A DNA stretch of 64,000 bases from Vermamoeba vermiformis (GCA_045837725.1 JBEWZL010000080.1:1-64000), one strand, 5' to 3'; shown: positions 30,286 through 51,860, counted from the stretch's first letter. Notes: a model not told the origin generated them from the letters alone. Numbers and translations: made by a program.

Positions 30286-33049
30286 ATGCCGGATCGTAAA
30301 GAATTTTTTTGTTGGCTGCTTCTAGGCCAGATCTTGCTGGTCAATGTAGTATACAGTGCAAAGTTAGCTGATTCCGGTTATCCAATGGCTGGAGCTAATC
30401 CTCAACGAAATTATCAATTAACAGAAAGGTAAAAATGAACGCAACAACACGACTCGAAAGATAATCTTTCAAACCAAATAGCATTATAATTGGTAATATT
30501 TAAATTATAATATTAGTAGTAGGCGAACTAATTAACATGATTTATTTTGTTTTTTAGTTTTGCTTTTTCTAATCCGCGATGTTACGCAGGTTTTATGCCC
30601 AAACGTCTCCGGCGGTAAATCAACCATATTAAATGTAGCATGGGTGTGGCCGCCTAGCAATTTTCCGCTCCAATGGGACTCCGTAGCACACCGAGAAATT
30701 ACTATGGACGCTGACGTGCGTATTAAACCATTGGAAAATATTATAATTATTTTATAGGGATACATATATTTAGCTGGATACGTTTTCATTGAAGGAAATG
30801 GCCTGCAATCGAAAGTTTTCAAGATTCACTCATCTGGAAACGCTTCCCTGACCACTATGTAATCAGTTTCTATTATTTATCTAGGAAATTAATCGTATCA
30901 TGCAGGACAAACTCGGTTCCACTAGAGCAATCAGTATACACTCACTTGGAAGGCGGTCTTTATTATTCAGCCAACGATAACGCTACCTTCGCTTGGAACC
31001 CTGATTTATCGTTAAATACGAGGATAGATAACGTATTTAATTCTATTGGTCCCTCGTCCGTCGCTCCTCTCGGATCAGATTATCTCGTCAAATCGAATGA
31101 CGGCAGCGAAACAGATCCCGCGCTTACCTTTATCAAAGTGCCAGAGAATACTGTTGATGTATCTAATAACCCCAACTTTATTGTTGGCTATACTACTCCT
31201 GTTATGGTCTACAAGAACGCGACACACGAGTTTCCGATTGTTGCGTCGAACACTTCACCTGCCACTTTCACATCTATGTATTACAATGGTTCGCTGCCAC
31301 GAGAAAGTGCTAAAGCGATGATAGACGGCTCTGAAATCATTTCTATAACGCAAAATACTGATGTGAAGATCTACAGAATAAGTGCCGTAAGTGGGACGTC
31401 AGTCCATAAACTGTTTACTGAGATTTCCTTTTAGGAAACTGGTGTTATCTTGGAAGAGAAGGGTGTCACTGTTGTAACTGGAGAGAGTGTCAGCTTGTCA
31501 GATCCGTCAAAATTTCTATATCATAATGGACGATCGCTTGCTGATGTCAGCCTTGGTGATGAGGTAGAAAGAACGGAATTATTTAATTTGAACTTTGTTC
31601 ATTACTAACTGCGATTCATACTCGTAGCATGCCTTTGCAGACCTTTATAACGACGAACTGATTGTCGAACGAACTGGAGAAATGCTTACCCAACCAACTT
31701 ATTCTACAGGTGAAGCTTGATCGTACTATTATATGTTATTCCGAGATGCTTAATTAATCGTGATTGATTTTAGTGGACAACGTCGTGATCGCTACTCTTT
31801 ATCGCGGAAATTTAGAATTTTGGGGCCTGGGTTGGGGAACCTGGGACGTTAAAATGAAGGCTGTGGGACCAGAGTTCAATAGTGCTACTGTAAGTAATCG
31901 AGACCTAGATCCTCTGTTTTAAGAAATTGTCGCGCTGACACTTTTGGCAGGGCTTTCCTATCTTCTCTGAAGACTGCAAGATGCACGTTGTAGTCGATCA
32001 AAATCTCTACACTCTCGAGCCACTGCCTATTCAAAATGTCGTGCCTATTCTCGAGTGCATTGATCCTGAGTGGGGTGTCGGATACTTTTCGTATGACAAT
32101 CTTGGACAACGCGAGTTCCAGATTCCGGCCATCCAAGACCGAAACTTTGTCGCAGCAGTGGTAAGTCTACTCGGTCTCGTCATTACTATGTTATATTAAC
32201 TCGGCTATGTTAGAATGATACTCCTATTACATCGTTTAAACTCGGTCATGGACCCACATATCCTTTGTCCAACATCTTGTCTCTGCCGTTGGAGAACAGT
32301 ACTTACACTTGGCAGCTCGAAAATTACCTTCTTAGCTTCAATCCTTCGGACTCTAAATTGTATTGCCCTACGAGTAAGTGTTTGTAAAGTATTGTTTGGA
32401 TGCGGATCTAACGTAACTTACCCTTGTAGCGGTCAATTTGACCATTGTCTTGACAGCCGATGCGCCTTTCCCTGCTAGTTTTAATCAAAAGGTGCGAAGC
32501 ACGTTTGTTTCTGTGACGGGAATTAGTGACAGTCGTGTCACAATTGTCACGAGCTCCAAGCGAAGTACCACTCAATCGAGCGAATTAGAAACAGAACTTT
32601 CTATTGCTCCTGGTGTGTGCCTTCATATCATGACTTTATTATTGACACTAACGTGATTATTAGATCCTAATAATGTGGAAAATTCTCCTGCACAAGTCGT
32701 GACAGAGTTCGCCACCAACCAACGAGATGCGTTCAACCAACAGATTAGCGCTGCCGACGGAGCTCCAGCCAATGTCACCGTATCATGTAAGTATTTACAA
32801 CTTAATTATATAAGCTAATATAATACAGCCGTTACCACGAAGCCGTTAGCGAGCCAGATTCGCGGATCCACAGAGGAAACTCCTTCGGCCCCACCTTCAA
32901 TTCCGACCAATGAGCCACAAGAAAGTTCGCAAGAACCTCAAGCGGTACCTTCTACAGCTAATTTCCTTTCCGGTATTGTTGGAATTCCATTTTTACTGTT
33001 TTGCTATTTCGGCGGTTCGCTTGCCATAAATAACAAATTCAGATGTTAA
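30286..33049 (+). CDS. GPI-type surface protein family, paralog 2
   Basis: MPDRKEFFCWLLLG..AKLADSGYPMAGANPQRN; LPIQNVVPILEC; TADAPFPASF..KRSTT..LETELSIAP; intron positions shared with paralog 1. Confidence 0.85.
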
Positions 33050-33082: not shown

Positions 33083-35787
33083 ATGGACTCACGGCATCGG
33101 AGGAAGAAAAGTGAGCAATTGGCGGTCTGCTCGATCCTCATCTGTTCGATGCTCTTTCTTATACCAAATATTAATGCCGAGGTACTTGCAAACTCTGGGT
33201 ACCCAACTGCAGGTGCTAACGCTGAAAGAAATTTCATGATCAACCGCCCTGTAAGTGGTAGCCGTTATTTTTAATTAATTGCATAAAAAATAGTAATGCC
33301 TTTATCTTAAGTTCGCTTATTAAATAATAGTAATATTTACTTATATTTACATTTACGCAGTTTCTTTGCCCGACGGTGTCCGGAGGAAAAACCACGGTGC
33401 TGAATCCAGCATGGATTTGGCCTCCAGACGACGTTATCTTTAGCTTTACCAGCAAAGAGATAACTGTTGATGAATTCGTAAGTCGGCTTCAATTATTAAA
33501 TGACGCTTAATATTTCTATCTAGGGGCAAATTTACGTACAAGGATTCGATACCACCGAACGAGTTATTAAAATCGATATTAATACCGGCCAGCGCGCTGC
33601 AGCAGAGTAGGATATTAAATTTTTAGCAATAACTTTATTAACAATATTGCTTTAGCTACCAAACCACTACTTTCATCGATCCGGTTTTAACGCACGTACA
33701 AGGCAACAAATTTTACATGTCGAAGACGGGCTCTACAGCAGTCATTAATAGCGCTACTATGGTTGCTTTGTATGATTTCCAGGACGCAGTTTCTGGAACG
33801 GGTCCATCGTCTTTTGTGCCCTGGTCATCGAACTACATGATTGAAAGCAACATTAACCCTCCTGACCCCACCATCGTTTCCATCCAATATTATGACGCTG
33901 TAAACAACGTCTTCAACACGAATTTACAACAATTCTTTGTTGGCCAACCCGTGCTCGCAATGGTCTACAAAAATAATACCATCGTGCTCGTTGGCTGGCA
34001 TCCTAATGATGGTGTTAGTTATATTCAAACGTCGAATTGGACCGTGAATATGAACGAAAGTCCAAAACGAGCTTGGATTGAAGATGACGAGCTGGTCATA
34101 CAAGCCGTCGAAGTCGTGCTATTAAAGTACCATTTGGTAAGCCTTCGCCTTATTTTTTTTAACCCGTTAACTAATAGAATATGTATATTAGAGCAATGGA
34201 ACTCAAACATTCCGCAAATCTTACAACCAGTATCAAAACAACTATTACAGTGGAGCTCCGTGGCTCATGTACTACAAAGGTCAATCGTTCTCACAAGTGA
34301 CTATTGGTGAGCAGGTACGTAATGATAATATTAGTAATAGTTAGCTCGTGAAACATGTTAATAGTGTGGACTATTAGACTTTCTACGTGGACATTATCAA
34401 TGAGGTGAATTTTACCGGCCCAGTTCCCGCTGCATTGCAAGCTCAGCCGATCTTGTCTAAAAGTAATCGTAAAACATATTATTATGATAATCTAATCACC
34501 TTGTTGCAGTGGACAATACTTTGTTTATCGCTCAATCCAACATCGGGTTTGACGTCGAATTCATGGGTCTCGAATGGGGTTCATGGCAAGTTAAACTCGT
34601 TGGGCAATTGGCTCAGGGTGTTTCTATTGGTGACCTTGGTCAGATGGCAAGTACTTTATTAATTAGCGAATAGCGTTTTAGATGGACCAATTGGCTAACG
34701 CACTAAATAGGGAACTCCAATCTTTCACGATAATTGTCAAGCTGCTGTGGTGTTAGGCTCAAAGCTGTACGGACTCCAGCCACTACCCATTCAAAACGTC
34801 GTGCCAATCGTCGAGTGTTACAATCCTAATGATGGCCGTGCCTTCTTCTCTTACAACAACCTCGAGTCTAAATCTTTCATTCTGCCACGCGCCGACGATC
34901 GTAACAACATCTCGCCTTTGGTACGTCATTATTTTTACATAAAATGTCACCCTAATTTTCGTGCAGAATGTTGTCCCTGTGAAAACTTTTGCTACTGGCC
35001 GTGGTCCTGCATACCCGCTGTCGCTTCAAGTGTTCCTGGGCTTCGAGAACGCTACGTACACTTGGACTTTGGAAGACTACGTGTTGACTTTCACTGTTAG
35101 CCCGAGCCTCTATTGCCCTCAATGTAAGCTCATCTTACTACTCTCATGCGTACTTAACTTTTATGTAATTAGCTGCTAATATTGTTATCACTTTGACGGC
35201 CGATTCACCGTTCCCCGCTGGCTTCAAAGAAATCGTTCGATCGACGTTTGTAAATGTCACTGGCATCAGCGACAATCGTGTCACTGTTGTCAATACTGGC
35301 AAGCGAGATGTGACTCAGACCAGCACCTTGGAGACTGAGCTTCAAGTAGATCCGGGTAAGCTACTTTGAATGGTCAAAACGAGTAAATAGCTCAATAATC
35401 TTTTGTTCATAGATGCCACTAATACGGAGCCTGACCCGAGTTCAGTCGTTCAAAACTTCGTTTCGTCGCAACAACAAGATTTCAACACTAAAATTTCTGA
35501 AGCAGATGGCGCGCCGTCTAATGTTCAGACGGGTAAGTGTTTTCCCAAGTCATTTTTGCCCAACTCAACAAGTTAACTTGAGTTGGTTTACTTTAGATGT
35601 TACTGGTAAAGAACCTAGCACGGCTTTGCAAGGAACAATTCCTCCTAAAGCTGTTCCTGCGGCACCGCCAGACGCTACATCTGCACCTGTATCGACGAAT
35701 CAGCCCATCAAACCTACCTCTGAAGCCACACGTGCCACCTCTTATATATTTTCACTACTGTTGTTGGCTTTATGTTTAATCAGCTAA
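33083..35787 (+). CDS. GPI-type surface protein family, paralog 3
   Basis: EVLANSGYPTAGANAERN; LPIQNVVPIVEC; TADSPFPAGF; ends SYIFSLLLLALCLIS. Confidence 0.85.
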
Positions 35788-37640: not shown

Positions 37641-39607
37641 TGTCAATAACTTGTAGCGTGTGCTGTTGATTGAATTGTATGAGGTAGATGAAATGAAAAG
37701 ATTCGCCGCGATGGTTTTTATGCCTGCGGGCCACGTGTACGATGTGATTGTAAATTTAGTAAAAAGTACCCAAATTTCAATGTGAAACATTTTGAAGCCT
37801 TGATGACAGGTCGCCGAAAACATTGAAATAATATATAAGGAGATAAATCATATACTGTCCAATAAAAGGTCCTATTGTCGTCGTGCATCTTCTGCTTCTG
37901 AATAACTTGTGAAAATAGAATTCAATCTTTTTAAAAGAATTGCCTAATATGAGCAATTTCCTTGATCCAAGCTATCAAATAATGAGACGACGTTGATTGA
38001 GTTCGGGTCACTCCTAGTATACTTTCAAAAAAGTGCTGCAGAATGAGTTTATGGAGATCTGTCGAAATCACAACGTTGGATCGCGCAGGACAATCCCGTG
38101 AAGCGACATACATTGCACGATTACGCGCGGACCAACTAAATAGAAGAATATCAACGAAACCGTGCCGAAAACTCAGAAATCGCATTTATTGGACGGAATT
38201 GTCGGATTTGTTTCAAGAGTTTGCTTTTTTTTATCGATTAATGGCGGAATGTTGAAAGATATTGTAAACACAGTCCAGACAAAGAGGTAATCTGGAAGTA
38301 ATCTCCCTCGAAACTTTTTTGGATCTCTTCCAACTTTCTTACCCACCTTGTTTCGAACCTCTAATCTGAAATATCACCCATGCGTACGTATAATCAGTGT
38401 TTTATCGCAGCGGGACTACTCATTGCAGTGATCTCTATCGCGAACGGAGCCGAAGTGCTTGCTAACTCAGGTTATCCGTGCCTGGGTGGAAACGCGCAGA
38501 GAACATACAAAATCGATAGGAATGTAAGTAATATTGCAGCTTGCTATTCGATTAACCGCTTTTTTGTGCACGATAATAAATATTGCTTTAATATTCGTGC
38601 TAATTCTCCACGCTGTTTAATAATTGCTAAACGTGTGTTTAAAAATAGTAAATTGGATATTTATACTAATTTTATTAGTTTCATTGTCCGGCGCAGACCA
38701 ACGGAAGGTCAACAGTTTTGAATGTTGCCTGGATTTGGCCGCCAGATAACTTTGACTTCGATTTCGTCAGTACTGAAATTACTACGGATGCGGAGGTAAA
38801 AATAATTTCCTACGATTACCGTTTATATCAAAGTTTAATTTTAATTTTAAAGGATCACATCTACGTACAAGGAAAAAATGCGACGACTAATATAATTTAT
38901 CGAGTACACTTCGAGAATGGAACATTATCGACTACTGATAGCGGGTATAATAATGTTCTAAATATCACCGTGATATTAATTTTTTGGTACCAAAAGGTAT
39001 ATTCCGACGGGGGATCCGCCAGCTTCCCTCACTCACGTTGCTAATGGATTTATGTACATGGCCTCGGCAACATGGTCTGAATACGTAGAAGAAAGTTCAA
39101 TGAGCGCATTTGTTACAGCGTCGCATACCGTGGCTGCTACGAAACCCTCGTCGTACGTGCCCTTCGGCAAGTATATGCTCAGATCCAACGTGGGAGCGGT
39201 CGCAGTTAATGATTATTCCTTGACCTACTGGGACTCTAATGTGCATTTGTTCGACACCAATGCTCCGAACTACCAAGAGGGCCGACCTATTGAGGTCGTA
39301 ATAGGGTCCAACGCGACCTCGGAATTTTGCATTGTTGTCACGGACAGAAGTCCATTCCCAGAATACCCTATTCACTCAGATAGTACGCCCCCTCTAGTTG
39401 CTACCGGAGGTACCTCACCGCCAGTTCGCGCTTGGTTCGAAGACGGACTATTTTACGTTCTTGGTACACAATCTTTTTTGGTTGTAGACGTGCGTAACAA
39501 CTTCTAGCGAAGTTATCATCTCACATTTTTTCTTTTTTTAGTGGTCTAATAGCTCTAATAATATCGATTATTCTCTTAATGGCGGCATCGATGGCCTTTC
39601 TAAAGAT

Positions 39608-39680
39608 GGTAGGAAGTTTTAACGCGTGACAACGTGGAATAAAAAACTTTTGTAAAAGATTTGCAAAAGATTTGCAAAAG
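39608..39680 (+). repeat. Left terminal inverted repeat with internal TTTGCAAAAGA-like tandem units
   Basis: Reverse complement of 49936-50008 with about 5 mismatches. Confidence 0.95.
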
Positions 39681-40217
39681 ATTACCAAATCTTTGGACCA
39701 ACGAAACAAAACTTTTGCTTTATTCAAACAATTCTTTTGACAACGAATAAACGAGTTTTTTCACGTAATTTTTGCTTATTGTGAAAGCACTCTAGAACTA
39801 AGTGCGAGATTAAGTCCTTCTGCGTTGCTGTGCGTAAATTATTGTCCTTCAAGTATTGTCGCAGCTCTTCAACGTCGGCGGAATTGACTGCCTTTGACTT
39901 GAACAATTGTGGTTGAAACCCGTTGTTACGCAACTGTTCAAACGTTGACGAGTCGGTGGTATGACTAACGAAGAATAATTTTGCAGGCAGCTGGTCAAAT
40001 TGGTCGGCCAAGAAAAGGAGTTCCGCACGCGCTTTTTCCGTTGGTGCTAACTTGCTGCGAGTAACGCTATAACAGGGGTTAGAGAGGTACTCGATGTTAA
40101 ATTATTTCTACGCACCTTGCATTATAATTGAGTACGCAGTGCTTAACAATTATGAGGTTCAATTCGAAAGAAATGTTTCCACTAATTTGCTGTGCCATTA
40201 CGGATAGATAATGGTGC

Positions 40218-40389
40218 TGTGACACAACGCCTACATCGCGTGCTGTGGATTATCCCACCAGGATTTAGATTTGTGATTCGTCACGTGCTCGTGACATGTC
40301 TTGTACTTTTCTTTATAAATAAATACTCGTTCTATTCTACTCGAGAGTGCACGACTATTGCTCTTTATTTAAATCATAGTTACATCACA
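40218..40389 (+). repeat. 5' LTR
   Basis: Appears identical to 46024-46195; TG...CA ends; contains AATAAA. Confidence 0.97.
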
Positions 40390-40391
40390 TT

Positions 40392-40402
40392 TGGCGACAC
40401 CT
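40392..40402 (+). promoter_or_regulatory. Primer-binding site (TGGCGACACCT)
   Basis: TGG starts 2 nt after the 5' LTR; implies a tRNA with discriminator G and 5' end GACACCU (a Ser tRNA is a guess). Confidence 0.7.
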
Positions 40403-40421
40403 ATCGAAACGAACTTTTGCG

Positions 40422-41879
40422 ATGGCGGACAAACTTCTGAAGTCTGCCACAGAGGCCGCTAACCGACACAGTGGCACAACCACCTCTAGTGGTCGTCGTG
40501 TTTCTCGCTTTGCCCCGGAGACTAGAACCCTGGACGACGACGTACCAATGACCGATTCAAATAACGGTACCCCGAAAGAGACTGAATCGAAGGCTAATCT
40601 GGAGTTCTTGACAAACGTCTTTACGCCTGTCAAACCCGATTACCAACCCCTTCGTAACAATAACAATCTGGACGGGTTTAACGTCGGAAACAGAGTCCAA
40701 GAGACGAGTTCCTTCGTTTCTGAAGATCGCGAGTCTAAGGAGGAGAGATCCACCGAAGATCGCGCTCCCAAACGCAGAATCTTGCAAGAGGATGACGATC
40801 GCCAAGCGGTCGATCATGATCAAGAGAGATTCCGCTTTGACCCAGGACTCTTCGCCCAGCGTGCTAACCTCATGCAGCTCGAGATCATGAAGTCCATTAC
40901 TGAGCGTCTTGCGTCAATTTCTGAGCCAGCGGTAACCTTCACGGTACCAGCAGATCTTCCTGTTTTCCGCGGCGACGACGAAAAAGACGACATGATGTTT
41001 GAAGAGTGGATTGAAGAAATGATCAGTCACGCGCGCATCAGCAACCTAAAAGAAGACGCTGTTTGCCAAACTTTGCTCCGAAAGTTGGAACAGCCCGCTA
41101 AAGGCCGTATTCTCGACACCAAGCCAGCTGATCGCGACAACCTGGACAAGCTCGTTAAATTGCTCTACGAGTTCTTTGGTAGCACGAAAGAGAAAGTAGC
41201 AGCTAAAATCCGAGAAATCAACGACAATCCTCAAAAGGAAAACGAAACCGGAACTGCTTACTTAAACAGGACAGCGAAGGCGTATCGATACGTCAAAACT
41301 GCTCCTGAAGACAAGTTGATTTTGCTCCTCACGAACGTTCAAAAGTCCTACGCTAAAGCTATCCGCAAGTGCACTGGTTACGAAGAGGCCGTCAAAACGA
41401 TCATCCGCAAAGACGAAGAAGACAAGATCTTGACCCGTCAAACGAAGGCGACCATCAACACCGTTCATGGGCATCAATCCTACGACCAGGAGAACACCGC
41501 TTGCCGAGATCAGATCCAATATCTCAAGGATAAGTTATTCGAGATTGCAAAATCCTTAAATTCCAACGGATCTCCCAAATTTGGAAATTCTAAATTTAAC
41601 CAGAATTCAAATTCTAACTCTTCGGTTAAAACCTACCGATGCTCCGTGCATCAGGTGGACACGCATACAGATGCTCAATGCCGTGCCCAAAAGCGCAACA
41701 ACAAGGGAGGCAAGAAGTTCAACAACAACAACAACAGATCTAAGTGGGCCAAGACCAGCAAGGCCATCGAAGATCTCGGGACGCGCGTCGAGAAGGCTAT
41801 CAACGCAATCGAACAAGCCAGTGCCAAGGTCATACCTGGGCCGAATACTGACGCGAATTCGGCGCAAGCAAAAAAATAG
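40422..41879 (+). CDS. gag: Gag protein
   Basis: LPVFRGDD..FEEWIEEM, PQKENETGTAYLNR (MHR-like), CSVHQVDTHTDAQC knuckle. Confidence 0.92.
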   Translation: MADKLLKSATEAANRHSGTTTSSGRRVSRFAPETRTLDDDVPMTDSNNGTPKETESKANLEFLTNVFTPVKPDYQPLRNNNNLDGFNVGNRVQETSSFVSEDRESKEERSTEDRAPKRRILQEDDDRQAVDHDQERFRFDPGLFAQRANLMQLEIMKSITERLASISEPAVTFTVPADLPVFRGDDEKDDMMFEEWIEEMISHARISNLKEDAVCQTLLRKLEQPAKGRILDTKPADRDNLDKLVKLLYEFFGSTKEKVAAKIREINDNPQKENETGTAYLNRTAKAYRYVKTAPEDKLILLLTNVQKSYAKAIRKCTGYEEAVKTIIRKDEEDKILTRQTKATINTVHGHQSYDQENTACRDQIQYLKDKLFEIAKSLNSNGSPKFGNSKFNQNSNSNSSVKTYRCSVHQVDTHTDAQCRAQKRNNKGGKKFNNNNNRSKWAKTSKAIEDLGTRVEKAINAIEQASAKVIPGPNTDANSAQAKK

Positions 41880-41925
41880 ATGGTGGCAGCGATGCCGACT
41901 CCATCGCTGCTATCTCCGCAGAGTC
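41870..41925 (+). promoter_or_regulatory. Programmed -1 ribosomal frameshift signal (A AAA AAA + stem/pseudoknot)
   Basis: Slippery heptamer 41870-41876, 5-nt spacer, 13-bp stem 41882-41894/41902-41914, loop GACTC complementary to GAGTC at 41921-41925. Confidence 0.8.
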
Positions 41926-44900
41926 AACACCCCCACCTAGCACTACCACCCCGGCCTACTCACCCATACGGATATCTGATCGAGATGTCCTGGCCATGAT
42001 CGACACGGGAGCTGGATTTACCCTGGCCGATCATACGTTCGTTTCAACCCTCTCACCCCCGCCAACCTACTTTCATTGCCCTCTCGCTCTTGAAGCCGCC
42101 AACAAGTCTTCTATTGTTGTGCGTGGCTTCACTCATCTACCGCTCCTCATCGCTGGATTTCGAGTCACCGTACCTTTCATCGTAACAGAAGGTCTCTCTA
42201 CTGACGTGATCATAGGTAACGATACTCTTAAATTAATAGGCGCGACTTTAAGTTACACCAAGCGCATTATCAAAACTAAATTTGGAAATACGTCACTAAT
42301 ATGTCAAAAACCAATGTCAAAAATCTTTTTCATTACCCGGCGAATTTTATGTCCGGAAGATATTGAATTTCCACCGCGATCTGGAACACACTTCGCGGTG
42401 CCAGTTAATTCTGTTAAAAATTCTAGCGAAGACCCACCTCTGCAAGATGAGGCCATCGTTTCATTCGAGCCGTCACCAAAGGTCTTGTCCGACACCAGCT
42501 TACGCGTAGCAGGAACGCTCGACACGATTCTTGACGGCACCATAATGATCAACATGGCAAATCCAACGGAGTTTCCGATCACGCTAAAGAAGGGTACCCC
42601 GCTAGGACGCCTATCTCCGGCATTCGAACCGGAGCCGGTAAATTTTATAACACAACCTACTAGTGACAAATTACCACCCGCTTCTTCCATGTCAGACGAG
42701 GAATTTTTAGATCAATTTCCTTTTGATCCAAATCTGACATCGGAACAATTAAAAATTACAAAGGAGACATTATTAGAGTTTAGAGATAGATTTTTAAGCG
42801 AAATTAGAACTACTGATATTCTACAGACTGAAGTTCAACATCGGATCTTCACCGCTCCTGGTGAGATCGTGCAACGACAACCCTATACATACGGTCCTGA
42901 AGAACGTAAGATCATCGACGAAGAAGTGGACCGTATGCTCGCTAGCAACATCATTCGACCTTCAACATCACCTTGGGCCTCACCTGTTGTCCTTGTTCGT
43001 AAAAAGGACGGATCAATCCGCTTCTGCATCGACTACCGCGGGTTGAATCGTATCACTCGACGTGATATGTACCCCTTGCCGCGCCTGGATCACACCATCG
43101 ACTCGCTCTCAGGAATGCTTTGGTTTTCAACGATGGATTGCGTGTCCGGTTACTGGCAGATCTTAATGGACTCGCTCGACATCCCCAAGACTGCTTTCGT
43201 CACTCACCGTGGTCTACATGAGTTCACTGTCATGCCTTTTGGTCTCGTCAACGCTCCAATGACTTTCCAACGCTCCATGGACATCATTCTCTCGGGTCTC
43301 AAGTACGAGATGTGCCTCGTCTATCTCGACGACATCATCGTGTTTGGAAGAACATTTGAAGAACACATCAGCAATCTACGTACTGTCCTCACTCGTCTGC
43401 GTCAACACAACATCTACCTCAAGCCCAAGAAGTGCAGGTTCTCGCAACGCTCCATCACGTTCCTTGGCCATCGGATCTCTGCCGAAGGAGTCACTACAAC
43501 GCCCGACAAGGTCAAGGCCATTCTGGAGTTCCCTGTGCCGAAGAATGCCACCGATGTTCGCTCCTTCTGCGGTCTTGTCAACTTCTACAGATCGCACATC
43601 AAAGACATCGCGACGTTGCAAGCACCCTTGAATAAAATCATGGGGAAAAGCGCCACGTGGAGCTGGTCCGACGATTGCCAAAAAGCTTTCGAAGGATTAA
43701 AAACGGCTCTGGCGAGCGCCCCCGTGCTTGGGTTGCCTGACTACTCGCTCCCCTTCACCCTCACCACCGACGCTTCCAACGATGGTATTGGTGCTATCCT
43801 CTCTCAACAACTCGACGGTATTAACAAGCCGCCTCGTGTCATAGCCTACTTTTCCCGTAAGTTAAACCCCGCCGAGAAAAACTACGGCATTACGGAGAAA
43901 GAGGCTTTGGCAGTCGTTCAATCCGTGCTCCACTTTCGTCCCTACCTCTACGGTCGCCGCTTCACAGTCATCACAGATCATCAAGCCCTCGTGTTCCTTC
44001 ATGCCAACCGCGCTCCAACAGGACGACTTGCCCGATGGCAGGCCGCCTTGATGGAGTTCGATTATGACATTGTCTATCGCCCTGGTTCAGCCAACGCCAA
44101 CGCTGACGCTCTCTCGCGTTACCCGTGCCCTGCTCCAGTCGTTGAGGCCCTCTACACGATCAACTCGCCCGACACATTCAACACGCCGCCTCAGCCTTGG
44201 AGTGAAGAAGAAATCATCGTCGCTCAAGAAGAAGATGAAGACATCAGCCCTTTGCTTCACTATATTCGAGATGGAATCGTGCCCACAGAAGATCTCAAGA
44301 GATTTCAAGCCATCAATCATCGCAAGGAATTTGCCATCGTCAACAACGTCCTATATCGTCTCTCGCCGCATCCTCTACTCAAGACTACAACTAGACAGCT
44401 CGTGCTCCCCGCCAAGTTCCGTTCCCGAGTGCTACACCTTCATCATGACACGCCCCTAGGTGCCCACTTTGGTTTCAACAAGCTCTACTATCGTCTCAAG
44501 CAAGAGTTCTACTGGCCGTCAATGGCTACCGATGCCCTCAACTACGTCAAGACCTGTACTGCCTGCAACGCTTACAAGACGCCCGTCGACAAGCCCATCG
44601 GAGATCTACAGAACCTCGTAGCTACTGAGCCCTTCGACATCATCGGAATTGACCTCGTCGGTCCCCTGCCTGCGACTAAGAAGCACAAGTTCAAGTACAT
44701 TCTCGTGATTCAAGACCTGTTCTCCAAATGGGTCGAGGCCTTCCCAATCAAGAGTAAAGACGCCCAACACATCGCCCAGATCATCATCAACGAAGTAGTC
44801 TGCCGCTTTGGCTCCCCGCGACAAATTCTCTCGGACTGTGGCAAGGAGTTCGACAACCGCATCATGGCTGAAGTGTGTAAAGTAATTGGCAGCGTTAAGA

Positions 44901-46006
44901 TTCGTACCAGTGGTTATCACCCGCAGACTAACGGTCAAGTTGAGCGTTTCAACAAGACGCTCCTCGCTTCAATTCGCCCGTTCATCAAAGAAGAAGGACA
45001 ACAAGACTGGCATCGCTTCATTCCGCAACTGCTCTTCGCGTATCGCACTGCCTATCATCAGAGTATCAAGACCTCGCCCTTCGAACTGCTGTTTGGCCGC
45101 ATTGCTCGCTCCCCGCTCAACTCAGGACTCATTCGCCCCGACACAGACCTGCTCGTCATGCCCGACACCTACGCTGCTGAAGTTTCTGGCCATTTCCTAG
45201 ACGCCTACGACATCGTACGACAACACATCGGATCTGCCCACGTGAAGATGCAACGCCTCTACAACAAGACTCGCCGCGACTTCTCATATCAGGTTGGAGA
45301 CTATGTGTGGCTACAATTGCGCCCCAAAGCCAATAAGAAGAAGAAACTCTCGCCCCAGTACGCCGGTCCCTACGTCATTCTCAACAAAGTCTCAGATCTC
45401 GTCTACAAGATCACCGACGCCGCCTACAAGGAGAAGAAGAAGAAGATCGTCAACATCAATCGACTCAAGCCCTACCTGTCCCGTGAAGATATTGAACCAA
45501 CGTCAAATGATGCCGCCGATCCAACTCCCGATCCACAAGAACCTGACACCGATGACTTCGAGGATGAGTCGGTGCCAGATATCGAGGAGGAGGAAGAAAC
45601 TGATGACGTTCTCAGTCATTCTGCTGATCAAGCTCTCGATCAAGCTTCCGCTCAAGTCCCGCTCTTCGACTTAGACCAGCCTACGCCGCCTACTCGCTCT
45701 GCTCGCTCTTCGCGACGCCTGGCTAACGCAGATTCCCACTTCCAAGACCTGTTCAACGCGCTCGCTAATCTCCGCGACACGTTCGAAGCTACGCCTAGCT
45801 ACTCGCTCAACGCACTCAAGACTCAACTCACAAGTCTACTCACCGCTGGATCACCCTTCGTGCGCTCTACACGACTTCACTCCCGCTTCGCAAAGGAAAT
45901 CAGCTCTCTCAGCTCGCGCTTCAACGCGATCTTCTTCCTGCATCGCCTCACCGAAGACTTCAACAACGAATTCAAGTTCGACTTGGAGAAATCGTCCAAG
46001 GCCTAA
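41870..46006 (+). CDS. pol: Pol polyprotein (PR, RT, RNase H, IN) in the -1 frame relative to gag
   Basis: IDTGA; SPWASPVVLVRKKDG.RFCIDYR; YLDD; TTDAS; HHCC zinc finger; GIDLVGP, SDCGKEF, GQVERFN; GPY. Confidence 0.97.
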   Translation, partial: KKIDGGSDADSIAAISAESTPPPSTTTPAYSPIRISDRDVLAMIDTGAGFTLADHTFVSTLSPPPTYFHCPLALEAANKSSIVVRGFTHLPLLIAGFRVTVPFIVTEGLSTDVIIGNDTLKLIGATLSYTKRIIKTKFGNTSLICQKPMSKIFFITRRILCPEDIEFPPRSGTHFAVPVNSVKNSSEDPPLQDEAIVSFEPSPKVLSDTSLRVAGTLDTILDGTIMINMANPTEFPITLKKGTPLGRLSPAFEPEPVNFITQPTSDKLPPASSMSDEEFLDQFPFDPNLTSEQLKITKETLLEFRDRFLSEIRTTDILQTEVQHRIFTAPGEIVQRQPYTYGPEERKIIDEEVDRMLASNIIRPSTSPWASPVVLVRKKDGSIRFCIDYRGLNRITRRDMYPLPRLDHTIDSLSGMLWFSTMDCVSGYWQILMDSLDIPKTAFVTHRGLHEFTVMPFGLVNAPMTFQRSMDIILSGLKYEMCLVYLDDIIVFGRTFEEHISNLRTVLTRLRQHNIYLKPKKCRFSQRSITFLGHRISAEGVTTTPDKVKAILEFPVPKNATDVRSFCGLVNFYRSHIKDIATLQAPLNKIMGKSATWSWSDDCQKAFEGLKTALASAPVLGLPDYSLPFTLTTDASNDGIGAILSQQLDGINKPPRVIAYFSRKLNPAEKNYGITEKEALAVVQSVLHFRPYLYGRRFTVITDHQALVFLHANRAPTGRLARWQAALMEFDYDIVYRPGSANANADALSRYPCPAPVVEALYTINSPDTFNTPPQPWSEEEIIVAQEEDEDISPLLHYIRDGIVPTEDLKRFQAINHRKEFAIVNNVLYRLSPHPLLKTTTRQLVLPAKFRSRVLHLHHDTPLGAHFGFNKLYYRLKQEFYWPSMATDALNYVKTCTACNAYKTPVDKPIGDLQNLVATEPFDIIGIDLVGPLPATKKHKFKYILVIQDLFSKWVEAFPIKSKDAQHIAQIIINEVVCRFGSPRQILSDCGKEFDNRIMAEVCKVIGSVKIRTSGYHPQTNGQVERFNKTLLASIRPFIKEEGQQDWHRFIPQLLFAYRTAYHQSIKTSPFELLFGRIARSPLNSGLIRPDTDLLVMPDTYAAEVSGHFLDAYDIVRQHIGSAHVKMQRLYNKTRRDFSYQVGDYVWLQLRPKANKKKKLSPQYAGPYVILNKVSDLVYKITDAAYKEKKKKIVNINRLKPYLSREDIEPTSNDAADPTPDPQEPDTDDFEDESVPDIEEEEETDDVLSHSADQALDQASAQVPLFDLDQPTPPTRSARSSRRLANADSHFQDLFNALANLRDTFEATPSYSLNALKTQLTSLLTAGSPFVRSTRLHSRFAKEISSLSSRFNAIFFLHRLTEDFNNEFKFDLEKSSKA

Positions 46007-46009
46007 TTT

Positions 46010-46023
46010 AAAGCGGAGGGAAA
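46010..46023 (+). promoter_or_regulatory. Polypurine tract
   Basis: AAAGCGGAGGGAAA immediately before the 3' LTR. Confidence 0.85.
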
Positions 46024-46195
46024 TGTGACACAACGCCTACATCGCGTGCTGTGGATTATCCCACCAGGATTTAGATTTGTGATTCGTCACGTGCTCGTGA
46101 CATGTCTTGTACTTTTCTTTATAAATAAATACTCGTTCTATTCTACTCGAGAGTGCACGACTATTGCTCTTTATTTAAATCATAGTTACATCACA
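46024..46195 (+). repeat. 3' LTR
   Basis: Appears identical to 40218-40389. Confidence 0.97.
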
Positions 46196-48235
46196 GTGCC
46201 ACGCTTCTAACGGCGATGTTCCTTGGGCTATCGTTTTCTTAAATTGTAAAAAATTAAATTATAGTCACAAAAAATTCGGAACTTACTTCAACTAGCGAGA
46301 TATTAAATAAGCTTGTTAGGGTTTGTTCTTTACATAAGTTTTCGACGGCATTAGAAATGACCTCGTCAGCAATTCCGTCTCGAAATTCTAATTTAGAGTT
46401 TCGCCTATAAGATGGGTTGTTAATCGTTATTATTAGCATGTCGATTGTAATACTTTTGCTTATTCAGTAGTAATATAATCTCATTTGTGTTGTAACGAGA
46501 GGCTTCTGTAGGATTGCTGAACTTTTGGACCCAGTTCCGCAAAGCAGCTGACAGGTCGGCAGAGGTTTTGTACCCGTCATTCTTGATCTTGGCAAGCAAA
46601 CCGGCAATCTCTTGCACACTAACTTTGTAGTCAGGATGAGATCGAGAGAGTAATTTGACGACTCTCATCTTTGCATGGTAGATGTCCGTTAGCAAGATTG
46701 GGTCTTGCGAGTTCGAAGTAGAGAAGTGCTGTCGAAAAGCGTTTAAGATTGCAGATGAGTCTAGCATAATTAGTGTGAGTTAGAAGAAGTCGACACCAAC
46801 AACTTACCCACAATGACGTTATCTGTATATATATACTTGGTAAGTGGACGTTGATGGTGTTTCCAAACTTCAACAAACACACTGGCAGCTTTTGTGCGAT
46901 CATCTGAGGGCACAATGCAAATTTGAAGCACGTGCCCAGATTCGTTGCTGACAGAAAATAGACTTGATTTCATTTTCATCTGATAAAGCGATTATTCTAA
47001 GTTAATAACATAGTTATGGAAGGTGTAATTACCCGTTTTGCTTCATTTTCGGAATGTGCGGACATATTTTTTACGATTTTATAAGTGTGATCTCCTCAAA
47101 GCACAGTTGTCGAATTTAAATGGTTTTGTGTTCGAGTGAAATCTTCTTCCTTGATTGTTTGCCAATAGGACATGTAGATGTTCTTGATGGAATGCATAGT
47201 TAAAGATAAAGCTTGCTCGCACATTCCATTGTTGGCAATCCATTGCAAGACCAAAATTCTCTTCACACAAGCAAAATTGAAACCAACCTGAGGCATTGTA
47301 TTATAAATGTAGCATGCTAGCGCTGTTGTGTAGAGCATCCGTGGGCCAACTATCATGGGTACACTTGGGAAGTGTTGTTTGTCAAGGCTTGCAATGACAT
47401 CTTCTGATAGATCTGTAAATAGTTCTCCGTGGTGCGTACACAGATAGCGCTGATATGTCAACGAGTACACGCCTGACACGTCAAAAAGGATCCGACAGTC
47501 AGTTCCGTTTTTGATGACACGGCACTGCTAGATGTTAACCAACCTAATGAAAGAACACTGATATACATACACCATCCTTTTTTGCGCACAATCGAAGCTT
47601 GACTTTGCGAGATCCCTTCAGCCAACAAAACTCGCGTTGTTGAAGACCATTTATGGATAAATCTAATGTTGAAAATTAGCACAAAAGTCGTGAATTTATT
47701 GAGCGTACCTTCCGTTGAATCACTGTCCGAGTCTCCGAAACAGCTTGAATTTTCTGATTCATCTTCGGACTCCGATTTGTCCTCGTCACTCTCAACATCA
47801 GGTAATGCAGCAGCAATATCATTTAAATTGAAGTTGTCTATCAGCAATATAGTCGAAGTCCATCACTTACATACCAAGCAGATCAACGGGCTTCGAAGTT
47901 GAAAGTGATTGTTGCATTGACTTTGGTTCTTGCAAGCTATCTTTTGATGCTACCTTCCATCCATGCTCACGTTCTGACACTACTGAATTAATAAAATCAA
48001 AATGAAACACTTACACTTCAGGTGAACGCCTCGAATGTGCCTGCGAACATTGGATCGAAACGTTGACGAATAGTCGCAGCAAGTGCAGTGGTGAACAGTA
48101 TAACCAGTAGTATTCAAAGTGCAGTACAGCACCTCAACCTTCTTGTCAAGTTCATCCTCAGTTGTGGTCTTCTCCATTTCGTGTCGGTCCGATTCAAATT
48201 AATTAAATTAAACTGAAGCGAACACAGACCGCATA

Positions 48236-49902
48236 ATGGCAACAAGTAAGTTAAGATTACAAACGTTAAATCAATTAAACAACTGCAGATAAAAAGCGTG
48301 CACGTACAACAGAAGACACAGCACCCACCGTTACTAGTATGGATTTAGATTCGTATTTTTTTGCAATTTATTAATGAAATTTTATAAATTAGAGAAGAGC
48401 AAAATTGCTGATAAAGGTAGTGTCAATATAATTCGTAATCGTAATCAGTCATTAATTATTGTCAGAGAAAAAGACGGGAACAAGCCACAACAAATCCGAG
48501 CCAAAAAATAGTACGTAGAGCTCTGAATTATTGATAAATTTCTAAAACCCATTCATTGAAGCAAGCACCACGACCACGAAAGAGCTGCACGAAAACCAAA
48601 GTACGGCAAATCTTTTGACCAAACTTTCGTCCAAAAATCTACGAGATTTCACTCGTTAGCATAATCTTTTGTCACGTTTTGCACTAAACTTTTTTTCAGG
48701 CACGCACAACACCCGCAGCACAAGTAATAATACCAATGAAAAAAAATCAACTGAAAATGATGCACTCAGCAAGTCTAAGAATACTGAGGCCTCAATTAAA
48801 TCAGATCCGGCTACCTCAATTGTCCCCACCGAGATCGGCAACATTATATCACTTTTTGGCCAAGATAAGAGTACGTATACAATTTCAAAACTGTCATAGC
48901 TAGTTAATAATATTAATAGAGCCTTGGTATGCAATAATCCGAAAAAAATTGGAAAACGATCAGATGGAGGTCACGTACTTGGAGGTAAGTCTCACAACAG
49001 CCTTAAAAAATATATAATTGGTTAATAATTTAATTTAGTTAAAAGAAGGTCGTAGAGTCCTGTTTACAGAGGGTTCGACTGAGATCGTTCCGAACAACTC
49101 CCTGATCTGCATTGTTTCCGCTTCTATTGCAAAGGACGGCGTAGTAATTAAAGAAGCTGAGCAAAAGAGGGTGCAAAATACCCAAATAAAAATTGGTAAG
49201 TGGAGTAAATTATAAAATTTTTTATTAATGACGCGATCTAGATCGGCACATCGCCAACCCTGCCCTTGAGCATCGGCAACGAATTTCAAATTGGGAATTC
49301 CCGGGCCAATACGTCAAGAAGCACTTCAAAGAGCCAGGTACAATGCGTTTCTCTTAAAACCGGATCTAACAAAGTTAAAGACACGCAGAAATTAGTCCTT
49401 GGGGAACTGGCAAGGGACCTAATCCTCCTTTGCGTTACCCAAAATTTAGACAAGCATGGCTTCTTAAATAAGCAAGTGTGGTCGAAGAGCAAGGACGGCA
49501 ACGGAGCGACGATGTTTCCATTTCTACTCTTTATGCGATTGATAACAATGTCACTCGAGCATGGAACCTGGCAACAAATTGCAGACGGGGATATTAAATG
49601 GCAAGCAACTGTCACTCTAGCAAACGTAAACTACCGTCAAGTAGCAATTTGCGGTAAGTCTTTCTCATCGCGTCTAACGCAGTCAACTTGAATTGACAAA
49701 ACATTGTATAGGTGGCATGTCTGGACCAACTTAGGAAGCAGCGCTTCGAGTCTTAATGGAATTAGGGTTTATTTTGCCGTTTGACAAATTTAACGGACAA
49801 GTGACGATTACTATTACACTTCCGCCGTACAAACCGTTTGAAACCACACCTGAGGTTGTTGATTTAACAACTGCAATGTTAGAAGAATTAAACGAAGACT
49901 AA
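48236..49902 (+). pseudogene. Transposon accessory gene: low-complexity N-terminus, BAH/Tudor-like barrel, C-terminal winged-HTH-like motif
   Basis: About 10 in-frame exons; IGNIISLFGQDKKPWYAIIRKKLENDQMEVTYLE..STEIVPNNSLICIV; NYRQVAICGGMSGPT*EAALRVLMELGFI with TAG at 49732-49734. Confidence 0.7.
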
Positions 49903-49935
49903 TATTAATAAATAAAACAATATTTACCGAAAAAA

Positions 49936-50008
49936 CTTGTGCAAATCTTTTGCAAATCAATTGCAAAAGTTTTTTATTCCACGTTGTCACGCGTTAAAAC
50001 TTCGTACC
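49936..50008 (-). repeat. Right terminal inverted repeat
   Basis: Reverse complement of 39608-39680. Confidence 0.95.
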
Positions 50009-51860
50009 CTAAAGATATGACTGAAAATTTTATTATGGTTCATCAAGGAAAATCATTTGCGCATTACTACTACAATGCAACTCGAGTAAGCACCTTTGAA
50101 AAGTTTATATAACGACAAACAAAAGTTATTGACCTTCGTTTTTCAGGCGGAGTTCATAGATCGAATTGGCTATGAATACATTACCTCGACACCAGCACCA
50201 GATTTTCAATGGCCGCCAATAGCTCAGCCTATTCTTTCTAAGCGTATGTGCAATCAGTTGAAAAGTAGTAGTTTTTTATTTGACTTTATGGCTAGTTGAC
50301 AACATCGTGCTGTACCCCAAAGGTATCAGCGGATCCAACGTGTACTTTGAAGGACGTAAATGGGGCACGTGGGAAGTTAAAGTCACCGGCAGAATGCCTA
50401 AAGGCGTTGTATTTAGCGCCAACGCTAATGTCACTGTAAGTTCAGGTTTCGGTCAACTTTCCTAATATGGAAAGAGACTGACACTAGCATGTATAGGGTG
50501 TGCCAATCTACGGTAACAATTGCGAGATTGCCATCGTGCACGACAACAAGTTGTACGGGTTGAGACCGCTGCCCATCCAAAACGTCGTGCCAATCTTCGA
50601 GTGTTACAATCCTGATACTGGCATTGCGTTCTTTTCGTACAACAACCTGGAACAAAACGCATTCGTGATCCCTCTGACACAAGACCGTAACTCTTTCACG
50701 CCAGTAAGTTTGCTGCTAGCGATAAAACCTCAATTTTGCTAATTTTTTGACAGTATTCGACACCAATTGAAGATTTCGATGTGGGCCGTGGACCAATCTA
50801 TCCGTTATCAGTACAGTTTAACGTTGGCAAGAACCTTCAAGGATATCATTATTGGGCCTTAGAATCGTCTACTGTCCCTATTCCTTTTGGCGACAGTAGT
50901 CTTATTTGTCCGACGAGTATGTGCAAATTTTTTGGTCCACACGAGTCTCATTTCTTTTTCCAGCTATCAATTTCGTTATCAAGCTGCGTGCTGATGGCCA
51001 ATTCCCCTCAGGATTCGGCGAAGTTGTTCGAAGCAAATTAGTTTCAGTGACGGGAATCAGTGACGCTCGTGTGACACTTGTCGAAGAAACGAAACTTCAA
51101 TCAAGCTGATTCAACTCTTGAAGCCGAGTTAGCTATTGCCCCAGGTACCTACTATCACATATATATTGCCACAATGTTAACGGGTCTGGTTGTAGATCAA
51201 CAGAACGTCGAAGAACAGCCCGCTGAAGTCGTCCAAAAATTCGTTGCAAATCAACAAGACGAATTTGTTCAACAAGTCAATACTGATACTAGTGCACCAC
51301 AGAATGTTACAGTTGAAAGTAAGCAGGATTTTGTGATGTGAATCTGACGGATCTGTTGCTAATTTTCATCGCTTAAGGTTTAAACGGCAAAGAGCTTAGC
51401 GGTCAAATCGTTGGTATCAAAGACTATGTCCCGTCACCTAGTGCCTCGGTCTCGCCAAGTGGTTCGCCGAGAAGTTCATCTGGGCCTTCATCAAACGCGC
51501 CAGCTACCTCTGATGCAACTATTGCCTTGCCGAGATTTTGGTCTGAGATTTGTCTTTGCACCGTTTTTCTGGTGTTTTTAAATATGTAAAACGATATCAA
51601 CAACTATAGTACTGCGAGCCTTGGTAACCCACGCAGATAAAAGCTCGTAATGACGAACTTGACCAATTTGAAAGTATTAAGAGCATTAAAAAGATGTCAT
51701 GATTCGTGACGATAATTTAACCCACTTCATGTCACTACAAAGACTTTCGTTCGACAGGCAATCCCTGATCAAAATTCGAACGAGACATTTTTTGACAGGA
51801 GAAGCACCAAATGAACACAATTGAAACAAAAACAATTGCCGACAAGAAGCAGTACCAGAA

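Follow-up and report, generated by a model that had tools for sequence, protein, structure and literature searches.

The 64,000-nt stretch of the Vermamoeba vermiformis assembly GCA_045837725.1 examined here (JBEWZL010000080.1:1-64000, hereafter the window, whose positions are used throughout) contains, at 39608-50008, a DNA transposon bounded by terminal inverted repeats (TIRs, GG...CC) and interrupted by a nested long terminal repeat (LTR) retrotransposon. This element is probably a dead copy from a rare, recently mobile family of cut-and-paste TIR transposons (class II, autonomous type), encoding a transposase of 688 residues together with an accessory gene. Once the LTR element and one copy of its GTGC duplication are subtracted, it measures 4,419 bp. 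Its general kind, an Asp-Asp-Glu (DDE) TIR transposon with an accessory gene, is already well known; the question is that of its superfamily within the group of transposases with a C/DxxH motif, where the leading readings are Mutator-like and Zisupton-like. Some 20 superfamilies of eukaryotic DDE transposons are recognised, and further superfamilies or gene layouts continue to emerge, mostly from protists and early-diverging lineages.

The ends of the element were delimited by inverted-repeat search and alignment. The left TIR (39608-39683, plus strand) begins with GGTAGGAAG and the right TIR (49933-50008, minus strand) with GGTACGAAG. Each arm is 76 nt long, and not ~73 bp as given in the original prediction, which had correctly reported real TIRs starting with GG. 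The arms are 92% complementary (70 of 76 positions identical, ungapped), share the start GGTA(G/C)GAAGTTTTAACGCGTGACAACGTGG, lose their likeness past 76 nt and constitute the one outstanding inverted repeat of the region 39000-50600. Their 25-nt core was found at exactly two places in the 64-kb window, one per strand, with an expectation of zero from 100 shuffles; neither this core nor sequence comparison revealed a second copy of the transposon within the window. Both arms contain tandem repeats of an 11-bp unit, TTTGCAAAAGA, with 3.2 copies on the left (39649-39683, plus strand, period 11, 95% matches) and 3.3 copies on the right (49932-49967, minus strand, 84% matches). When at most one mismatch was allowed, the unit gave eight matches in the window, four of which lie within the two TIR arms, including three at 39649-39683. 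Judging from their sequence, these sub-repeats are candidate transposase-binding sites. Besides, each TIR abuts a copy of CTAAAGAT (39600-39607 on the left, 50009-50016 on the right), identical at 8 of 8 positions, which bears out the perfect 8-bp target site duplication (TSD) that had been proposed.

Then, the region 46200-50100 was compared with an aquifer metagenome (run X3), in which a fraction of 0.56 of the sampled words is present. One X3 contig carries 77 letters ahead of position 50009, the last 30 of which are identical to window positions 39570-39599. This contig corresponds to the empty site, i.e., the left flank, a single CTAAAGAT and the right flank, with the element absent. A second contig reaches the last base of the element and continues with 120 letters not found in the window, so that it derives from a copy at another locus. 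Taken together, the empty site and the second flank indicate recent movement. The element is an insertion with an 8-bp duplication, polymorphic between samples and present at more than one site; TIRs, a TSD and an empty site elsewhere, which define class II cut-and-paste TIR transposons, were all found. X3 contigs cover 30 of the 30 bins of 46200-50100, and the 23 matching records comprise 10 that are at least 99% alike, nine at 95-99% and four at 90-95%. Since contigs span this region at 90 to at least 99% likeness, diverged copies with both genes exist elsewhere.

Further variation was seen in the same run. Two X3 contigs disagree at 46248, 47743 and 48186, among other positions, with the depth split about half and half; in addition, 6 nt are inserted in frame after 47103, and intron 7 of the transposase gene shows small deletions (46413-46427). 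These disagreements and indels suggest that at least two diverged copies occur in X3. Runs X7-X20, which are labelled as four other organisms and some of which are guessed to be RNA, share 0.07-0.17 of the sampled words; these words might represent related copies or transcripts in other species and were counted as no evidence. No RNA run was listed as a source of the stretch, and three RNA sequencing runs labelled as the same species gave 0, 1 and 0 reads on 46200-50100, which does not constitute a test of expression.

Two spliced genes fill the element in opposite orientation, as had been noticed from the sequence, with 10 exons for the transposase gene and 11 for the second gene. All 19 introns are of the GT...AG type, 18 of them being 32-56 nt long and one 85 nt, and the reading frames are kept throughout. 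The transposase gene, on the minus strand, comprises 2,067 nt or 688 codons with one internal TGA, and its 10 exons lie in 11 pieces, exon 9 being split by the LTR element. Its 5' part (46200-48177, ATG at 48177) includes exons 1-5 (48177-48015, 47982-47875, 47837-47709, 47662-47571 and 47527-47033), exons 6-8 (46979-46808, 46760-46454 and 46404-46287) and the first half of exon 9 (46237-46200). Its 3' part (39724-40217) consists of the second half of exon 9 (40217-40116), an intron of 49 nt and exon 10 (40066-39724), which ends with the stop codon TGA. The introns of this gene are 32-53 nt long and many of their donors read GTAAGT or GTATGT.

The predicted transposase has a C2H2 zinc finger in exon 1 (approximately at 48036-48101, minus strand; Cys31/Cys34...His47/His52 of the spliced protein), for which the Pfam matches zf-H2C2_5 (E 0.0026) and zf-C2H2_16 (E 0.024) both fell below the Pfam cut-offs. 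The finger is followed by an acidic stretch, and exons 4-5 encode a cysteine/histidine cluster (C146, C159, C166, C175, C194, H196 and H197) next to a helical region. The proposed catalytic triad, all on the minus strand, consists of D310 (codon 47090-47092, within GDHTYKIVKN), D382 (46821-46823, within YIYTDNV, a putative second Asp read from its motif) and E539 (46205-46207, within TSPLEAWHHYL), with the spacing D310-(71)-D382-(156)-E539. A DxxH motif, D412-I-Y-H415 (46675-46686, minus strand, within TDIYHAK), lies 29 residues past D382 and 123 before E539; the transposase had rightly been described as of the DxxH type. This architecture would place the enzyme in the C/DxxH group (MuDR/MULE, hAT, P, Kolobok, Dada and IS256), the triad being assigned by motif and not by homology.

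An in-frame TGA was found at codon 308 (47096-47098, minus strand), two codons ahead of D310, where the relatives described below have Arg. The X3 copy has G in place of A at 47098, resulting in CGA (Arg). In addition, the LTR element sits within the codon of W541, two codons past E539. Because of the CGA-to-TGA change before D310 and the LTR insertion after E539, the transposase copy of the window is dead twice. Among the 40 listed differences to X3, 23 fall in transposase codons, 16 being synonymous and seven non-synonymous (one of which is the change from stop to Arg), and all six of those listed in exon 7 occupy third positions. Introns or the 58-bp spacer between the two genes hold 12 of the 40, four of them being in the spacer. 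Unconstrained genes would be expected to show a synonymous share of about 22-28%; against this, P is 1e-6 to 4e-5 in the transposase gene and 0.010-0.024 in the second one. This synonymous excess argues for purifying selection on the transposase between copies.

The second gene (48236-49902, plus strand) runs from an ATG at 48236 to a TAA at 49902, and its 11 exons comprise 1,146 nt or 381 codons with no internal stop. Exons 1-6 were placed at 48236-48245, 48289-48336, 48393-48416, 48466-48510, 48562-48654 and 48700-48870, and exons 7-11 at 48920-48984, 49039-49195, 49242-49337, 49381-49653 and 49739-49902. Its introns measure 43-56 nt, except the last one of 85 nt, and its stop lies ~105 bp short of the element end. 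The divergent start codons of the two genes are separated by a spacer of 58 bp (48178-48235), which is presumed to be a bidirectional promoter. The N-terminal 125 residues of the second protein are basic (isoelectric point, pI, 9.9) and of low complexity, with many Ser, Thr, Asn and Lys residues and the sequence KKRAR; the other ~256 residues have a pI of 6.6 and no recognisable domain. The labels "BAH/Tudor-like" and "winged helix-turn-helix" initially given to this protein found no support from the tools used. Its exons have no Pfam or NCBIfam match when scanned one by one, and a search of proteins with lengths of 81-261 residues gave no homologue. For exon 10, the largest one, the AlphaFold model computed from a single sequence reached a predicted local distance difference test score (pLDDT) of 45.9, too poor for use. 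The "Tudor-like" stretch itself (PWYAIIRKK...EVTYLE...) is divided over exons of 21 and 52 residues.

Five of the listed X3 differences fall in codons of the second gene, four being synonymous and one an Ile-to-Leu change. The gene looks to be under constraint between copies, the numbers being small. As it is intact, constrained-looking and present in diverged X3 copies, a function encoded by the element is favoured over junk or recent capture. By analogy, the second gene is read as coding for an accessory protein, whose role could be comparable to that of MURB of MuDR or of the Myb-like partner of Harbinger. It is rather improbable that it is instead a captured host gene or a passenger without any role in transposition, in the manner of Pack-MULE cargo. 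Such a passenger would account for the lack of any recognisable domain or homologue tying the gene to transposition, it fits the inspection of a single complete copy, and extra open reading frames (ORFs) of unknown function are known in DNA transposons of this group (PMC11343200). However, the second gene has stayed intact, with 381 codons over 10 introns, though the transposase is broken twice, and it also occurs in the diverged copy or copies of X3, with a right end at another locus. Its differences are mostly synonymous, it fills the element together with the transposase gene across a spacer of 58 bp, and no paralogue of it occurs elsewhere in the 64-kb window, all of which argues against cargo.

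Relatives of the transposase were searched with exon 5 among 1.84 billion representative proteins. Five matches were obtained, of which three are clear relatives, with E values of 3e-33 to 4e-24 and an identity of 39-49%. In the alignment with exon 5, for which P0002 was replaced by its cluster-mate P0006, the relatives show 45-51% identity to the window. At 154-270 residues, the three clear relatives have the size of an exon; GDHTYK is kept in each, and each continues as KRV, as would be expected if the GT of the same intron donor were read there as Val. The exon 5 model and the motif around D310 are backed by these homologues (P0001, P0003 and P0006). Their clusters have one or two members and uninformative names, and word-based searches found no relatives of exon 5 among longer proteins. 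P0005 (E 6e-4), whose distant relationship is doubtful, was included in the exon 5 alignment, profile and AlphaFold input. P0004 was rejected as a relative; it is a bacterial-type repeat protein of 3,587 residues, whose E value of 1.9e-9 comes from eight "PQWLQWIDG" repeats matching "LQWIANNG". No DNA of the relatives was found in metagenome contigs, whether searched with a protein pattern or with a TIR pattern, nor in prokaryotic genome contigs or viral contigs. The transposon family is nearly absent from the databases searched.

Several observations weigh against the reading of the element as an autonomous-type transposon with a functional transposase and a true accessory gene. The gene models are manual predictions, with splice sites chosen from a three-frame reading so as to hold the frame. 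In the second gene, exons 1-5 are tiny (10-93 nt) and the last intron is atypically long (85 nt); the role of the gene is argued from analogy only. A single complete copy of the element was seen, and the X3 variant table lists 40 of 65 differences and eight of 23 contig pieces, possibly mixing several copies. Exon by exon, Pfam and NCBIfam gave nothing relevant for the transposase, and no relevant PDB sequence was retrieved with exon 6, exon 7 or the profile of exon 5. The AlphaFold model of exon 5, computed from five sequences, was poor (pLDDT 52.6), and in Foldseek it had no match in the PDB at E <= 0.001, the top matches being unrelated enzymes. Because no profile or structural homology to transposase families was found, the catalytic assignment rests on motifs.

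The domain scans have to be read exon by exon. At E values up to 1-10, hmmscan gave no match for MULE (PF10551), Transposase_mut (PF00872), KDZ (PF18758), CxC, DUF6729 (PF20499) or SWIM, and none of the exons scanned matched an NCBIfam insertion sequence (IS) model. The exon 5 queries were versions of 143 and 165 residues, and the relatives scanned were P0001, P0003, P0005 and P0006; the DUF6729 profile, which had been suggested as a check, matched neither exon 5 nor any of these four at E up to 10. Since introns split the catalytic domain over exons 5, 6, 7 and 9, such negatives are fair only for domains contained in a single exon, i.e., DUF6729 and CxC for exon 5, SWIM and the hAT dimerisation domain for exon 10. 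An undescribed family, as suggested in the original prediction, is plausible in view of the negative per-exon Pfam and NCBIfam scans and of three clear relatives in 1.84 billion proteins; the further statement that the element fits no superfamily is not established by scans of this kind.

The first exons of the second gene raise an alternative, in which this gene is partly a splicing artefact, its 3' exons (48700-49902) being the only coding ones and the head-to-head layout across 58 bp being unreal. We consider this unlikely, even if the splice model of exons 1-5 is the weakest part of the analysis. These exons are 10, 48, 24, 45 and 93 nt long and of low complexity, and frame keeping guided the choice of their splice sites, as expected if they were spurious. 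Yet two X3 differences in these small N-terminal exons, at 48326 and 48620, are synonymous third-position changes, and the predicted intron 5 holds those at 48680 and 48696. Moreover, the larger downstream exons offer no in-frame ATG before exon 7, so that an upstream start is needed for the second gene.

With regard to the superfamily, Mutator-like elements (MULEs), which have IS256 as their prokaryotic relative, are the best fit in anatomy. Long TIRs, often with subterminal repeats, and TSDs of 8-11 bp characterise MULEs, and both were found here. The element also resembles Muta1, an active MULE, which produces TSDs of 8 or 9 bp and has long TIRs made of a terminal motif and short subterminal tandem sub-repeats (PMC5225508). 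Indeed, its 8-bp TSD falls within 8-9 bp, its 76-nt TIRs carry about three copies of an 11-bp unit, and its transposase would likewise join an N-terminal zinc finger to a DDE core that has a C/DxxH motif (PMC5225508). MuDR had previously been set aside on the grounds of TSD length; this exclusion is unsound, because Muta1 makes 8- or 9-bp TSDs (PMC5225508).

A divergent Mutator (MULE/MuDR) family, inside the known superfamilies, would explain the D(71)D(156)E layout, the DxxH motif 29 residues past the second Asp and the zinc-binding N-terminal region. The motifs at D310 (DxTYK) and E539 (TSxxExxHxxL) presumably resemble MULE/IS256 signatures. Other features depart from MULEs. The motif is DxxH, with D where MULEs usually have C, and no exon matches PF10551, PF00872 or an NCBIfam IS model within the limits given above. 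A SWIM zinc finger follows the catalytic domain in many MULEs, though not in all; here the C-terminal exon has no Pfam match to it, the C-terminal exons show no such finger, and the sequence past E539 contains only two Cys and six His, with no CxC...CxH. MuDR is a two-gene element, with mudrA and mudrB convergent from TIR promoters, whereas the second gene of the present element diverges from the 58-bp central spacer and has no similarity to anything searched. Overall, the Mutator placement is a serious one, to which we would give somewhat less than an even chance.

Zisupton (KDZ) elements, a candidate absent from the original prediction, have 8-bp TSDs, an N-terminal cysteine cluster in the transposase and often extra genes. 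The 8-bp TSD is a Zisupton hallmark (PMC12730594), and KDZx1 of Cryptococcus deneoformans, 6.4 kb long, also has an 8-bp TSD and combines a transposase ORF (CxC4 + KDZ + SWIM) with another ORF, the function of which is unknown (PMC11343200). The element in the window shares with them the TSD length, an N-terminal cysteine cluster (C146-H197, exons 4-5), a second ORF and a size of a few kb. In addition, the language-model look-alikes of exon 5 were DUF6729 (score 0.96, 201 of 256 features; 12 of 30 matches) and the KDZ-associated CxC5 and CxC4 clusters (0.91; 10 of 30 and 7 of 30), CxC4 ranging from 0.89 to 0.91 and CxC5 scoring 0.91. However, recognition (2007) was below threshold and only three of the 10 best named matches share the family of the top match, and neither the exons nor the four relatives scanned matched CxC, PF18758, PF20499 or SWIM. 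For exon 7 the best look-alike score, 0.76, was uninformative, and DUF6729 or PF20499 is not named in the literature searched. KDZx1 differs further in having no detectable TIRs, vs. 76-nt TIRs here, and no DxxH motif is reported for KDZ in the literature excerpts examined. A Zisupton-like element is a doubtful placement.

The other superfamilies of the group agree less well with the element. hAT elements have an N-terminal BED finger, short TIRs and a D-to-E distance much longer than 156 residues, whereas the TIRs here are 76 nt long, start with GG and enclose a transposase with a D-to-E distance of 156 residues. The hAT dimerisation domain (PF05699) had no match in exon 10 or in the ORFs scanned, the E539 stretch, split by the LTR element, lying outside that scan. 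P elements also produce 8-bp TSDs; the P superfamily fails on exon 1, which has no THAP match and only weak C2H2-type matches. The likeness to hAT elements lies in the 8-bp TSD, an N-terminal C2H2-type finger, a TDN-like motif at the second Asp and the C/DxxH motif (PMC9587614). Kolobok shares the C/DxxH motif, as well as purine-purine/pyrimidine-pyrimidine termini (5'-RR...YY-3') with the element; it has a TTAA-specific TSD of 4 bp (PMC9587614) and is ruled out by CTAAAGAT, which is 8 bp long. Dada, with TSDs of 6-7 bp and insertion into small RNA genes (PMC3706591), fails on both the TSD (8 bp here) and the target, which here is the 3' end of a protein-coding paralogue.

In PIF/Harbinger elements, the transposase is accompanied by a Myb-like DNA-binding partner. 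The likeness is one of functional analogy only, through a second protein that looks suited to nuclear targeting or DNA binding. The TSDs of Harbinger are 3 bp long (PMC12730594), its DDE family is a different one, and no Myb/SANT domain was matched in the present element.

Lastly, the element could represent an undescribed superfamily-level lineage of the C/DxxH group, characterised by a C2H2 finger with a DUF6729/CxC-like cysteine cluster, 8-bp TSDs and an obligatory divergent partner gene, whose product would have no kinship with known proteins and which would be needed for transposition, through nuclear import, end binding or target choice. We regard this as unlikely. In approximate terms, a MULE-like placement thus ranks first without reaching an even chance, a Zisupton/KDZ-like one is a minor possibility, an independent lineage inside the C/DxxH group is improbable, and the rest goes to other placements.

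Returning to the preferred reading of an autonomous-type cut-and-paste transposon, the following mechanism can be proposed. The transposase would bind the 11-bp sub-repeats of the TIRs via its zinc-binding N-terminal region, excise the element and reinsert it at cuts staggered by 8 bp. D310, D382 and E539 would carry out cleavage and strand transfer, and H415 would be positioned close to the active site, as is the case for hAT and MULE enzymes (PMC5225508). Both genes may be driven from the 58-bp spacer acting as a bidirectional promoter, while the second protein, with its basic head resembling a nuclear localisation signal, might aid the reaction or its targeting.

What makes this element interesting is clean evidence of recent movement, together with a transposase that goes unrecognised by standard domain libraries when its exons are taken singly. 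If the partner gene were necessary for transposition, this would be another independent two-component DNA transposon, offering a handle on target choice and nuclear entry. If a MULE or Zisupton placement applies, it is an ordinary new family, chiefly useful for annotating the repeats of the organism.

The target is the 3' end of a paralogous gene, the fourth in a tandem family; depending on the splice model, the element entered the last coding exon or a site located a few codons ahead of the stop. When the empty site is read as 39498-39607 joined to 50017-50112, one model indicates that the last codon before the host stop was replaced (...FLKI* becoming ...FLKMVGSFNA*), and in the other the last exon of the host gene is shortened by ~31 codons. 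At least five paralogous ORFs with motifs such as "SYVPFG..." were found in the window, at 27805-28581, 30793-31434, 33642-34310 and 38980-39507 on the plus strand and 62990-63616 on the minus strand. Some of them end in a hydrophobic tail, and the two that were scanned had no Pfam match.

The nested retrotransposon (40218-46195, plus strand) is of the Ty3/gypsy type and is no part of the DNA transposon. Its LTRs (40218-40389 and 46024-46195) are 172 nt each, 100% identical and delimited by TG...CA, and its insertion duplicated the 4 bp GTGC (40214-40217 on the left, 46196-46199 on the right). It looks like a very recent insertion, possibly still competent. Both of its ORFs are open: a gag-like ORF of 499 codons (40380-41879, plus strand), which has no Pfam match, and a pol ORF of 1,384 codons (41852-46006, plus strand), with the order protease, reverse transcriptase, RNase H, integrase. 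The integrase carries a Tf2-1-like SH3 domain.

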